A stretch of 64,000 nucleotides of DNA from Lachnospiraceae bacterium. GTDB lineage: Bacteria; Bacillota; Negativicutes; Veillonellales; Dialisteraceae. The position numbers and the translations under genes were made by a program. Positions 60,066 through 64,000 of the stretch are shown here, piece after piece. A model generated the notes under the pieces. It was not told where the DNA came from. It searched no databases and worked only from the letters and a program-made list of their open reading frames with translations. Position 1 is the first letter of the stretch. Each line of letters starts with the position of its first letter. The stretch lies in assembly GCA_963615055.1 (NCBI GenBank), contig CAVEFO010000001.1, positions 48,948-112,947 on the forward strand, in the 5' to 3' direction.

Positions 60066-61355
60066 CGGCACGATCGACGCGCAATGCGGCATGATATTGA
60101 TCGTGTAATCCTCCTTGCCTTCTCGCGCCAGCTGCTCTTTCGCCAGTTTCCAAGCTTCCTCGACCGTCGCGACAGGAATCTGATGCGTCTTCTTCACCGC
60201 CTCAAAATTTTCCGGCTTCGTCACGAGATAAATCGTGTAGCGATGCGCCATGCTGAAAAGATTGAACGCAACGAAGAACGGAATCGTAAAGCAATCCCGC
60301 AGCGCGCGCTCCATGTCCTCCTGCTTCTCAAAACGGAAACTGTCCATGTATTCCTTCGGTTCGTAAATGTCCCGCGCTTCCATGATCGCAATGATGATTC
60401 CGCCTTCCTTCGTCGCCGCTTCCGCCGGATCATAGCATTTCGTCCCCTGATAGAGCGACACGTCCTTCGGATAACCGCCCGCGCACGCAAAACTCACATC
60501 CGATTTCTGTTTGAAAGAAACACGCTGAATCGCATAGACTTCCTTCGTCCCCGCCAGCCACGCTTCATACGGATCGCCGCCGACCATTTTGCAAATTTGT
60601 CCCTCCGAATTCAGCACGGAATGGATAAGGAAACACGGCTTTATCATATCCGCCGCTTCCTGCATATCATCGCTCACCACATTATCCGCAAGCTGCGTGC
60701 TCCGCGTCTTCGGATTCACACCGGCACCGAATGTATCCGCCAGCGCATGGCAATGATTCTTCTGCACCGTATCCCAACCGGCGACCCCCGGCAAAATCAA
60801 TTTCCGCCCACCGCCGTAGCCCGCGAAAAGATGCGTCGTGATGCCATTCACCAAAATGACCCGATCCGCTTCGACCACGTGCCGATTCAGCCACACCGGC
60901 GTCCCGATCTTCGTATCGCCCATGTAGACCAGCTCGTCTTTATTGCGGCTGTCGTGCTGCACCAGACGAATGCGACGGCACACCTCCTCGCCCACCGTGC
61001 GGACATTCTCCTCCGCCGTATGCGCGCGATGCGTCCCCTGCGCGAAAACAATCACCTGATCCTCATCCGGGATCCCGGCCGCATTCAGCTCATTTACGAT
61101 ATGAATCACAAAATCCGCCGAATGATTCCATGAACGCGTCACATCCGCGCACACGAGACACACCTTCTCACCCGGCTTTACAATCTCCGCCAACGGCTTT
61201 GATCCGATCGGATGGCGCATACAATCAATCGTCGCTTCCTTCACATCGATCGCCGGCACCGCCTTCCCTTCCAGCACATCCGACACATGCTTCTCAGGAA
61301 GCATCACACTCTGCGTCCCCGTCCCGAAACCGAACGTATATTCCTTCAATCCCAT
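60054..61355 (-). CDS. LarA-like (nickel-dependent lactate racemase family) protein
   Basis: Start at MGLKEYTFGFGTG with a GGGGAGGG Shine-Dalgarno. Layout matches the LarA/DUF2088 family (..THLFAGYGGGRK..). Family assignment is from memory. Confidence 0.6.
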   Translation of the reverse strand: MGLKEYTFGFGTGTQSVMLPEKHVSDVLEGKAVPAIDVKEATIDCMRHPIGSKPLAEIVKPGEKVCLVCADVTRSWNHSADFVIHIVNELNAAGIPDEDQVIVFAQGTHRAHTAEENVRTVGEEVCRRIRLVQHDSRNKDELVYMGDTKIGTPVWLNRHVVEADRVILVNGITTHLFAGYGGGRKLILPGVAGWDTVQKNHCHALADTFGAGVNPKTRSTQLADNVVSDDMQEAADMIKPCFLIHSVLNSEGQICKMVGGDPYEAWLAGTKEVYAIQRVSFKQKSDVSFACAGGYPKDVSLYQGTKCYDPAEAATKEGGIIIAIMEARDIYEPKEYMDSFRFEKQEDMERALRDCFTIPFFVAFNLFSMAHRYTIYLVTKPENFEAVKKTHQIPVATVEEAWKLAKEQLAREGKEDYTINIMPHCASIVPVAE

Positions 61356-61460
61356 CGAAAATCCCTCCCCTATCCATACAAATGAAAATTTTTTCCATTT
61401 TATCATAAGAAACGGAAACCGAAAAGACAGCGCCCGCCCATTTCCTTTTCGACCATCAAA

Positions 61461-61491
61461 CTCGCGTATCCTATAGCGCGAGCTTTTTATT
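61461..61491 (+). terminator. terminator-like hairpin upstream of the recombinase gene
   Basis: CTCGCG/CGCGAG stem followed by CTTTTTATT. No plus-strand gene upstream that it would obviously terminate. Confidence 0.35.
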
Positions 61492-61510
61492 GTGAGAAAA
61501 GAGGAAATCC

Positions 61511-62119
61511 ATGGGACAAATCTACGCCTACATCCGCGTCAGCACCCGCGACCAAAAAGAAGATCGGCAGCTTCTCGCCATGAGACAACTCCCGATCCCG
61601 AAAGAAAATATTTTTATCGACAAACAATCCGGCCAAAACTTTGATCGACCGCAATACCGAAAATTACTCCGCTGCCTACAAAAAGATGATCTGCTCTACA
61701 TCAAAAGCCTCGATCGCCTCGGACGAAATTACAAAGAAATCCCCGAAGAATGGCGGCGACTCACCAAAGAAAAAGGCATCGATATCGTCGTCCTCGATAT
61801 GCCCCTCCTCGATACCCGCCGCGGCAAAGACCTCCTCGGCACCTTCCTCAGCGACATCGTACTCCAAGTCCTCTCCTTCATCGCGGAAAACGAACGCGAA
61901 AACATCCGATGCCGCCAAGCCGAAGGCATCGCCGCCGCCAAAGAAAGAGGCGTCCGCTTCGGCCGTCCGCCCGCGCCGCTGCCGAAAAACTTTACAACCG
62001 TTTATCTGCGCTGGCAATCCGGAGAACTCACAGAAAAAGCCGCCGCCAAATCCTGCGCCATGCCCCTCTCCACCTTCCGCTACCGCGCCAAACACTACAA
62101 GCCGGAGCCGGAAACGTGA
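61511..62119 (+). CDS. small serine recombinase (resolvase/invertase family)
   Basis: 202 aa. Catalytic N-terminus YAYIRVSTRDQ and a C-terminal HTH. Typical size for Hin/Gin/Pin-type invertases. Confidence 0.85.
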   Translation: MGQIYAYIRVSTRDQKEDRQLLAMRQLPIPKENIFIDKQSGQNFDRPQYRKLLRCLQKDDLLYIKSLDRLGRNYKEIPEEWRRLTKEKGIDIVVLDMPLLDTRRGKDLLGTFLSDIVLQVLSFIAENERENIRCRQAEGIAAAKERGVRFGRPPAPLPKNFTTVYLRWQSGELTEKAAAKSCAMPLSTFRYRAKHYKPEPET

Positions 62120-62129
62120 AATCCTTTCG

Positions 62130-62278
62130 CCGTTACAAAAATGTGTACTTTTTTGCAAACCATTATTTCTAAAATTTCAAATTCATTATACCGCAAAAAT
62201 ACGCCGTTTCAAAGACGACGGGAAAACAGATTTTTCTCAATTTGACCGTTGCAAAAAAGTACACTTTTTTAACAACGG
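62130..62278. promoter_or_regulatory. candidate invertible promoter segment (inverton)
   Basis: 31/32-bp imperfect inverted repeats at 62130-62160 and 62247-62278, with a 16-bp perfect core GTGTACTTTTTTGCAA / TTGCAAAAAAGTACAC. Lies between the recombinase stop and the glycosyltransferase start. Confidence 0.6.
62185..62212 (-). promoter_or_regulatory. promoter inside the invertible segment (currently facing away from the GT genes)
   Basis: On the minus strand: TTGAAA (62207-62212), 16 nt, TATAAT (62185-62190). Confidence 0.5.
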
Positions 62279-62288
62279 AGAATCGGTA

Positions 62289-63842
62289 ATGAAAAAAATC
62301 GGTCTTGTGCTGTCTTGCGCTGTTCTTGTCATATATTCTCTATTTTGGATTGGATGCTGTCTGCTCAACTTATTTTTCTCTTACGTCCCCTATTCCTGCA
62401 AAAAAACATTTTTATTTTCCAATTTACAACTGCTTCTCTTTGGCCTCCTATCCGTCATTCTTTTTTGGATTTTCTCCTATTGGTTATCTCAAAAAAATTT
62501 TTCTCTTTCCTTTCCAAAATGCGACATCAACATTTTGACGCTGATACTTTTTGTTGTGCAAGCCTACGTTTTCTACAATACCTATTTTTACACAAACCAG
62601 TGGGACCCGGCCGCGATATATGGAAATGCAGAAATCATCTCCAGAGGAGCTACCGAAGGCCTCAATCACTTTTATTTCTCCAGATATCCTAATAATATCG
62701 GAATTGTTTGTTTCCAATCCATTCTGCTCCGTCTCAATCGAATCAGTGGCGTCTGGGATCCTGAAGGCCACTTTCTGATGATTTTGGTGCAATGTCTGTT
62801 GTCGTCTTGGACAGGAAAACTCCTCTACGACACCGTATGCCGCCTGACCGATTCCGGGAAATATGCTCTTCTAAGCTGGCTATTCTATATCGTTTTGCTC
62901 GGATTATCCGGTTGGAACATCATCACCTACACCGACATGATGAGCCTTATTTTCCCCATCGCCATTTTCAGCGTGTATCTCTCTTTGCAAAACGAAAAAA
63001 GAATCCTGTTGAAATGGATCGTCATCATCGGTTTGACGTATTGGGGCAGTCTGATAAAGCCAACCGTTGCCATTATCTTTTTGGCACTTCTTATCACGGA
63101 AATCATCCAACTCCTAAAACATTTCAATCTCGAAACATGGCGCCGAAAATTTAAATTTTTTATTAAAACCGCAATCGCCGGAGGCGTCTGTATTCTGCTG
63201 TTTTCAATGGGATATCAAGCCGCCGTTCGTTCAACCGGCTTAAACATCAATAAAAATGCATACGTCGGCGCCCTCCACTTCATGATGATGGGCCTAAACC
63301 CCGATAACCATGGCGTTTTCCACAAAAACGACACACTTTTATCTGCCAATATTACCAATCCATCCGAACGAACACATGCTCAAATCCAAACGATAAAAAA
63401 ACGTTTACACGATTATGGCCCCAAAGGATTCGCCAAACACATAGCAAAAAAATCTCTCATCAATTTCAATGACGGCACTTTTGCGTGGAGATGCGAGGGA
63501 GGCTTTTTTGATGTTATTTATCCGAACAAAAACAAAAAAGCAGCTCCGTTCTTACAAAGCTTATATCTCATAAATGGAAGCCGATATCGCTATCTTGCCG
63601 CACTGGAACAATGGGTATGGATGCTGACTCTTTTCACCTCCATCGGGCTGATCCTGATTAAAAAGAAAGCAGCTTTGGTTATTCTCCTATCTTTAATCGG
63701 TATCATTCTGTTCCACTCTCTGTTTGAAGCCCGGGCTCGGTATCTAATCCTATATGTTCCATTCTTCATCATGGCGTCCATTCTCTCCTTACATCATGGC
63801 GAAATGTATTGGCAAGAAAAATTACAAGGCCATTTTTTTTAG
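62289..63842 (+). CDS. polytopic membrane glycosyltransferase-like protein (GT39/ArnT-like)
   Basis: Start at the ATG at 62289 (MKKIGLVLSCAVLVIYSLFW) with an ACGGAG Shine-Dalgarno. The ORF-track extension to 61641 overlaps the recombinase gene in another frame. About 12 hydrophobic segments. Low GC. Confidence 0.6.
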   Translation: MKKIGLVLSCAVLVIYSLFWIGCCLLNLFFSYVPYSCKKTFLFSNLQLLLFGLLSVILFWIFSYWLSQKNFSLSFPKCDINILTLILFVVQAYVFYNTYFYTNQWDPAAIYGNAEIISRGATEGLNHFYFSRYPNNIGIVCFQSILLRLNRISGVWDPEGHFLMILVQCLLSSWTGKLLYDTVCRLTDSGKYALLSWLFYIVLLGLSGWNIITYTDMMSLIFPIAIFSVYLSLQNEKRILLKWIVIIGLTYWGSLIKPTVAIIFLALLITEIIQLLKHFNLETWRRKFKFFIKTAIAGGVCILLFSMGYQAAVRSTGLNINKNAYVGALHFMMMGLNPDNHGVFHKNDTLLSANITNPSERTHAQIQTIKKRLHDYGPKGFAKHIAKKSLINFNDGTFAWRCEGGFFDVIYPNKNKKAAPFLQSLYLINGSRYRYLAALEQWVWMLTLFTSIGLILIKKKAALVILLSLIGIILFHSLFEARARYLILYVPFFIMASILSLHHGEMYWQEKLQGHFF

Positions 63843-63857
63843 AAAGGGTTCAATGAA

Positions 63858-64000
63858 ATGAAAACCGATTCACTGTATATTGTCATGCCAGCCTATAACG
63901 AAGAAGACAATATCAAATCCGTGGTGAATGCGTGGTATCCCCTTTTGGAGGGAAAAGCAGAAACGTCTAAATTAGTCATTGCTGACAGCGGCAGCACCGA
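63858..64000 (+). CDS. family-2 glycosyltransferase (5' part; continues past the window)
   Basis: MKTDSLYIVMPAYNEEDNIKSVVNAWYPLLEG..., a typical GT2 N-terminus. Confidence 0.65.
   Translation, partial: MKTDSLYIVMPAYNEEDNIKSVVNAWYPLLEGKAETSKLVIADSGST

Follow-up and report, generated by a model that had tools for sequence, protein, structure and literature searches.

A probable recombinase-linked invertible promoter upstream of a candidate glycosylation operon in a gut Firmicute

The stretch of DNA analyzed here, referred to below as the window (64 kb), encodes close to its right-hand end a small serine recombinase, which is followed by a pair of inverted repeats enclosing a promoter-like sequence and by the beginning of a putative glycosylation operon (Table 1). 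The assignment of the first of these genes to the serine recombinases, proposed in a first-pass annotation of the window, was supported by a match to the Resolvase family (PF00239, E=1e-27, residues 4-148) and by the conservation of the catalytic residues, as Ser11 (in the motif RVSTRDQ), R9, D68, R69, and R72 are invariant across 26 homologues. The closest solved structures are those of Sin/Bin3 (8.5e-28, 100 bits), followed by Gin (2e-16, 63 bits) and then by the Tn3 and gamma-delta resolvases. The long helix of the protein is followed by a GRPP arm, and a three-helix bundle was modeled at the C-terminus (residues 161-195) with a pLDDT of 75-91, the model as a whole being poor (pLDDT 55). 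A Pfam search gave no match to an HTH domain in this protein, and the score obtained with the curated model of Mpi (NCBIfam NF009949) was 42.7 bits, under the cutoff of 272. The gene ends with a TGA codon at 62117-62119 and the left 26-bp site begins 13 nt downstream.

A terminator-like hairpin (CTCGCG...CGCGAG followed by CTTTTTATTG, 61461-61482) was observed in the leader of the recombinase gene, just before its ribosome-binding site, and the gene located upstream of this hairpin is divergent. The hairpin may keep the expression of the recombinase low. A leader terminator was discarded as a feature of the recombinase family, as a strict scan was positive for no more than 7 of 88 loci.

Table 1. 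Genes, sites and signals at the candidate switch (positions refer to the 64-kb window).
Feature	Position	Strand	Remarks
Small serine recombinase, 202 aa, presumed invertase	61511-62119	plus	PF00239; outside the invertible segment
Left recombination site, 26 bp	62133-62158		TTACAAAAATGT-GT-ACTTTTTTGCAA; centre 62145-62146
Inner segment, 90 bp	62159-62248		would invert along with both inner half-sites
Sigma-70-type promoter, TTGAAA-16-TATAAT (predicted)	62185-62212	minus	11/12 consensus match; faces the recombinase 3' end (OFF)
Hairpin + T-run	62202-62220	minus (promoter strand)	terminator-like match; overlaps the -35 element
Right recombination site, 26 bp	62249-62274		TTGCAAAAAAGT-AC-ACTTTTTTAACA; centre 62261-62262
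GGAG ribosome-binding site	62277-62280	plus	read from sequence; 8 nt before the first cargo ATG
First cargo gene, 517-aa polytopic membrane protein	62289-63842	plus	probably a GT-C-type glycosyltransferase
Second cargo gene, start of a GT2 gene	63858-64000	plus	cut by the window end; PF00535, 18 bits (below cutoff, 47 aa)

The core of the repeat is an exact 16-mer, GTGTACTTTTTTGCAA, whose plus-strand copy spans 62143-62158 and whose minus-strand copy spans 62249-62264, exactly where the first-pass annotation had placed a perfect 16-bp core; a third copy is absent from the 64-kb window. When loops of 40-340 nt were considered, these 16 nt constitute the longest perfect inverted repeat of the window. 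In dinucleotide-preserving shuffles of the region 61000-64000, this length was attained in 0 of 500 sequences (maximum, 15 nt), and a chance origin of the repeat is excluded. Without gaps the arms extend over 22 nt (62137-62158 and 62249-62270), with 95% complementarity and 90 nt between them. Each copy had also been described as a dyad of two 8-bp half-sites around an asymmetric dinucleotide. The dyads and their centers, AAAAATGT-GT-ACTTTTTT at 62137-62154 and AAAAAAGT-AC-ACTTTTTT at 62253-62270, are present as described; the half-sites are longer, as the symmetry reaches 12 bp. Both sites are dyads of the form 12-2-12, with an internal symmetry of 10/12 (left) and 9/12 (right), and their centers are separated by 116 bp, that is, ~11 helical turns. 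The two inner half-sites form a perfect reverse-complementary pair, and the outer half-sites are degenerate. A shorter motif characteristic of the family, AANGTGTACNTTT, is confined in the 64-kb window to the two switch sites. The overall length of "roughly 31 bp" first attributed to the repeat had to be given up, as it includes a CCGTT...AACGG extension which pairs only with a 1-nt indel. This outer extension was rejected as a part of the site: it is missing from the allelic loci of the same species that carry other cargo and, because of this absence, it probably lies outside.

The promoter predicted within the inner segment was recognized on the minus strand as TTGAAA (62212-62207), a 16-nt spacer and TATAAT (62190-62185). 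As anticipated, it is aimed at the recombinase gene, which corresponds to the OFF orientation, and the ~60 nt expected between this promoter and the ATG at 62289 after a flip agree with a mirror inversion about the site centers, which puts the end of the -10 element near 62222. Based on its sequence, the promoter of the window is predicted to be active. The hairpin that overlaps its -35 element is conserved in close relatives only, and it is possible that it works as an insulator against read-through from the recombinase gene in the ON state. Only 14 nt, GGAG included, separate the right site from the ATG, and therefore there is no space for a fixed cargo promoter between the switch and the start codon. 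No convincing plus-strand terminator was detected between 62119 and 62289; the OFF state could be leaky through read-through from the recombinase gene.

The first cargo gene encodes a protein with no Pfam match in the local library, PMT/PMT_2 included, even at E=10. It aligned over its full length with TIGR03766 ("XrtG-associated glycosyltransferase") with 136 bits (1.8e-39; the cutoff of this model is 500) and, based on the annotation of homologues, it belongs to PF27792. Among the homologues there are some with an additional match to PMT_2 or with a fusion to GtrA, as well as one that its source calls GT39; PF13231 is present in only some distant homologues. The AlphaFold model of the protein has a pLDDT of 92.7, and the top Foldseek matches of this model were all GT-C enzymes (STT3, PglB, ALG3, Pmt4, and ArnT; probability ~1), a likeness that is weak in terms of TM score (0.3-0.42) and E value (at least 4e-3). 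The model suggests that the 517-aa protein is probably a membrane glycosyltransferase with the GT-C fold. The label "GT39-like" originally given to it is too specific, as a PMT/PMT_2 match is lacking and the likeness is to GT-C enzymes in general. The GT2 gene announced downstream could be substantiated, as the partial PF00535 match of the second cargo gene is accompanied by 92% DNA identity to the start of a 237-aa PF00535 gene in the allelic loci L096 and L097 of the same species.

In L096 and L097 the operon consists of GT2, GtrA, and a 492-aa membrane protein, and the membrane transferases of the two cargo alleles are mutually unrelated. The conservation of GT2 next to unrelated allelic transferases makes the locus look like a Gtr-type locus with interchangeable terminal enzymes. 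The cargo types observed within the species were the combination of GT2, GtrA, and the 492-aa membrane protein (type A), the 517-aa GT-C protein plus GT2 (type B) and, in L100, an ORF of no known kind (type C). The homology between the window and same-species loci with other cargo stops at 62269-62274, within the outer half of the right site (62263-62274), as if this site marked a junction for cargo exchange. The GC content of the cargo (62200-64000) is 36-46% vs 52-66% in the flanking genome (56000-62000), a difference compatible with a cargo acquired by horizontal transfer.

The recombinase is a member of a large family. A protein search retrieved at least 7,826 protein clusters at E<=1e-60; among the clusters listed, one (P0001) is 97% identical to the query and a group shows 83-89% identity. 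At least 467 relatives were found when species-representative genomes were scanned with the recombinase alignment, the best 80 of which belong nearly all to gut Clostridia, with exceptions including Megasphaera, Phascolarctobacterium, and Granulicatella. Among these best 80 of at least 467, ~50 loci contain a 12-2-12 site pair starting from ~10 nt after the recombinase stop, with the half-site consensus TT[A/G]CA[A/G]AAA[A/T]GT. GT in the left and AC in the right center were found in 45 of 47 non-redundant loci from the same best 80, in accordance with the earlier proposal that the asymmetric centers of the window denote sites of the serine-recombinase type. The geometry of the promoter is also shared: in 48 loci (best 80 of at least 467) the -35 element is placed at a constant distance (66-67 nt) from the promoter-proximal crossover center, and the promoter is directed toward the recombinase in 34 loci and toward the cargo in 14. 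Again for the best 80 of at least 467, the centers of the two sites are separated by 115-116, 124-128, or 134-138 bp, equivalent to 11, 12, and 13 turns of 10.5 bp, a periodicity with a Rayleigh R of 0.75 and a mean phase of 0. As the loci are not phylogenetically independent, the p-value is too favorable, although the pattern itself is clear. The additional length of the longer spacings (L008-L087) is located entirely upstream of the promoter.

The first genes downstream of the switch (best 80 of at least 467 relatives) encode surface proteins (BspA-LRR, SLH, and Listeria-Bacteroides-repeat proteins), Eco57I and C5 methylases, ResIII helicases, CpsB and sugar transferases, as well as SPFH proteins, zinc-ribbon membrane proteins, and one EAL protein. 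The cargo of the family is typical of phase-variable genes. To judge from these alignments, recombinase, sites and promoter are a conserved cassette in gut Firmicutes. In the literature searched, which was incomplete, no description of this switch family or of the repeat sequence was found, and full-text searches with six variants of the repeat returned irrelevant matches only.

The conserved linkage between the recombinase gene and the sites suggests that the adjacent enzyme catalyzes the flip. An alternative would be a recombinase encoded elsewhere, such as a global invertase like Mpi or RecV, the adjacent gene being the remnant of a resolvase or mobile element. Trans-acting master invertases exist and are known from the literature, and the nearest solved relative of the adjacent enzyme is the resolvase Sin; nevertheless, this explanation is improbable in view of the organization of the family. 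In ~50 loci from different genera (best 80 of at least 467) the gap between the recombinase stop and the left site is ~10-13 nt, and a distant catalyst is unlikely because this coupling of gene and sites is invariant in front of changing neighbors. Besides, variants of the site, e.g., GTGTAG, travel with particular recombinases, and the 64-kb window contains no further copy of the site.

Evidence of the inversion itself was provided by loci retrieved from contigs encoding close homologues of the recombinase and the members of their clusters; queries with the exact sequences of the recombinase and the GT-C protein of the window, and of P0127 and P0133, returned no contig. These loci have the same neighbors as the window, namely a Cu-ATPase, a metallo-beta-lactamase-fold protein, LarA, and the recombinase. 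The repeat pair is carried by nine loci of the same species (the window, L088, L096, L097, and L099-L103), and eight same-species loci show ~97% DNA identity to the region 57.4-62.16 kb of the window. In four of the nine (L088, L096, L097, and L099) the inner segment is reversed and the promoter faces the cargo (ON), while in the other five (the window and L100-L103) it faces the recombinase (OFF). The ON contigs are collinear with the window until exactly 62158, after which 62130-62270 matches in reverse. The segment that the first-pass annotation had called invertible is found flipped between unchanged flanks in contigs of one species. Once reverse-complemented, the inner segment of L099 (90 nt) differs from that of the window by 2 SNPs, and the inner segment of L101 is identical to that of the window. 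The inner segment of L099 (ON) is nearer to OFF segments than to other ON segments; this independence of orientation from sequence relatedness argues for repeated switching.

Both orientations were also found outside the species. In a sister lineage, in which the recombinase proteins are identical to one another and 86-87% identical to that of the window, L089 and L090 are ON and L091-L095 are OFF, with identical flanks. A metagenome scan with the repeat pattern, which gave no match from the species of the window, revealed a distant relative (68-72% recombinase identity) controlling an Eco57I-type methylase, in which L001 is flipped with respect to L003-L007, also with identical flanks.

All these orientations were read from consensus contigs of different samples, and it could be argued that they represent old structural variants that became fixed among strains, at a locus that no longer switches. 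This is very unlikely because ON and OFF recur in three lineages (4 vs 5, 2 vs 5, and 1 vs 5); in addition, the SNPs of the inner segment do not segregate with orientation and the recombinase is intact and retains the catalytic residues. Contigs L098 and L090 terminate inside the switch, and contig L004 (962-1098) ends with its own cargo-side flank in reverse-complemented form and contains both junction types, which also speaks against fixed variants; as assembly signatures of mixed orientation within a sample these contigs are only suggestive. It is hardly credible that, instead of being a recombination substrate, the repeat has a structural role in RNA or DNA (long hairpin, terminator, or operator of the recombinase gene) or marks the ends of a miniature transposon. 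The read-through RNA would fold strongly (-42 kcal/mol, z=-4.8), but the 90-nt interior is reversed between unchanged flanks, which excludes a structural role as the sole explanation and leaves room for it only as an additional one. There was no Rfam match above noise (a spurious miRNA-hairpin match was due to the repeat), and neither extra repeat copies in the 64-kb window nor a target-site duplication beside the arms were found.

Altogether, this evidence makes it very likely that the locus is a working invertible promoter flipped by the adjacent recombinase, with the cargo in the OFF state in the window. In the proposed mechanism, dimers of the recombinase would bind both 26-bp dyad sites, which would synapse across the 116-bp loop (~11 helical turns); Ser11 would cut both sites at the central dinucleotide and rotation would be followed by religation. 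Because the centers are GT and AC, only inversion would restore base pairing. In the OFF state transcription from the promoter would enter the recombinase gene at its 3' end, leaving the glycosylation operon without a promoter of its own. In the ON state transcription would start ~60 nt ahead of the ATG at 62289, and the promoter would drive an operon for Gtr-like glycosylation, which encodes the GT-C membrane transferase and GT2 as well as, in allelic loci, GtrA. A phase-variable decoration of a surface polymer would be the expected outcome, and it is in this sense that we infer a glycan phenotype for the switch.

The organization of the locus is reminiscent of Hin, Gin, Cin, and Pin with their hix/gix sites (Salmonella H segment, phage Mu G segment), which also combine a small serine recombinase with two inverted 26-bp sites of the form 12-2-12 and an asymmetric center. 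The A-tract-rich half-sites and a GRP arm ahead of the C-terminal helices are common to Hin/Gin and the switch described here, and, as in Hin, the DNA that would be flipped contains a promoter. On the other hand, the recombinase gene of the window is wholly outside the segment, whereas in Hin/Gin it is inside and its 5' part contains an enhancer bound by Fis. The segment measures 116 bp from center to center vs ~1-3 kb, and because of this small size there is no room for an internal enhancer. To our knowledge, the Firmicutes hosts lack Fis. Another difference from Hin/Gin is that the recombinase of the window has a better match to Sin (100 bits) than to Gin (63 bits).

By sequence the closest family is that of the Sin/Bin3/beta recombinases of Gram-positive plasmids and Tn552, which occur in the same phylum. 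The Sin/beta enzymes are resolvases that act on directly repeated res sites with an accessory site II; in contrast, the window contains two single inverted dyads, and the outcome observed in its species is inversion and not resolution. Sin/beta enzymes use bending proteins of the HU/Hbsu type rather than Fis. We infer that a bending protein closes the 116-bp loop, and by analogy with Sin/beta an HU/Hbsu-type protein would be a plausible candidate for this role.

Mpi, which controls polysaccharide promoters in Bacteroides fragilis, is likewise a serine recombinase of a gut commensal that flips short promoter segments for surface glycans. However, the many promoters served in trans by Mpi are dispersed, while one recombinase per switch is found here, and the site consensus and the type of promoter are different. 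With regard to the cargo, the gtr operons of Salmonella and phages (O-antigen glucosylation) also contain GT2 (GtrB-like), GtrA, and a variable membrane transferase under ON/OFF control, and in Salmonella gtr the last enzyme is likewise allelically diverse. Phase variation of Salmonella gtr is epigenetic, based on Dam/OxyR; it differs in this respect from the switching by DNA inversion proposed for the locus of the window.

Invertons that adjoin an invertase are well known from gut bacteria through recent catalogs (PhaseFinder, DeepInverton, hCom2; PMC11892184, PMC11602134), and the locus resembles the entries described there in being an intergenic promoter flanked by repeats, associated with an invertase and located upstream of surface-modification genes. 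In those papers, motifs from Bacteroidota and Akkermansia are treated in detail and, for Clostridia, unnamed new repeat groups are merely mentioned (PMC11892184, PMC11602134).

For a gut Firmicute that is either uncultured or poorly studied, sequence comparison alone supports a locus of phase-variable glycosylation, and this locus belongs to a very large and little-described family of cassettes. Across Clostridia, the genes under its control probably include those for surface proteins, capsules and restriction-modification systems; phage sensitivity, immune recognition and colonization are shaped by switches of this kind. The compact design (a recombinase plus 116 bp), with spacings quantized in helical turns, would offer a tractable model for short-loop inversion without Fis or enhancer, and the cassette could become a small genetic switch for the engineering of Gram-positive gut bacteria. 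Helical phasing, the fixed geometry of the promoter and the exchange of cargo at the right site are the points that merit follow-up at the level of the family.

A more far-reaching proposal, which we regard as speculative and rather doubtful as a whole, is that the unit of ~0.8 kb formed by the recombinase gene, the two 26-bp sites and the promoter is a self-contained and horizontally spreading "plug-in switch" with four joint properties. According to this proposal, the unit may have been placed before very different cargo in thousands of loci of gut Firmicutes and some phages. It may work without Fis or an enhancer, through a loop of 11-13 helical turns and with strict helical phasing. In the OFF state its promoter may run antisense into the recombinase gene and bias the switch toward OFF or stabilize this state, which could explain the 34:14 excess of OFF loci (best 80 of at least 467 relatives). 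Finally, strains may exchange cargo operons at a junction that is provided by the outer half of the right site.

Some members of the family depart from the single-copy arrangement or show particular features. One Flavonifractor genome contains two paralogous cassettes in opposite states, OFF in L014 and ON in L017. Loci with two recombinase copies within a few kb were also observed (L065, L076, and L084), and in L076 and L084 the two copies are upstream of a CpsB capsule operon. In L052 the centers are AT/AT, i.e., symmetric, vs the usual GT/AC, which should abolish the directionality that enforces inversion only. Viral contigs (L117-L183) harbor a large phage-borne clade of related recombinases with ~51-63% identity and without a downstream site pair; among the viral copies, the site pair is confined to those with a recombinase identity of at least 65%. 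The phage-borne relatives with ~62% identity or lower, which have no downstream site pair, were not retained as members of the family and represent a different subfamily. About eleven cassettes (L014, L017, L018, L024-L026, L029, L042, L059, L061, and L078) share conserved DNA that abuts the start of the recombinase gene; this DNA resembles the 3' end of a gene and may represent a linked partner gene or a part of a larger mobile unit.
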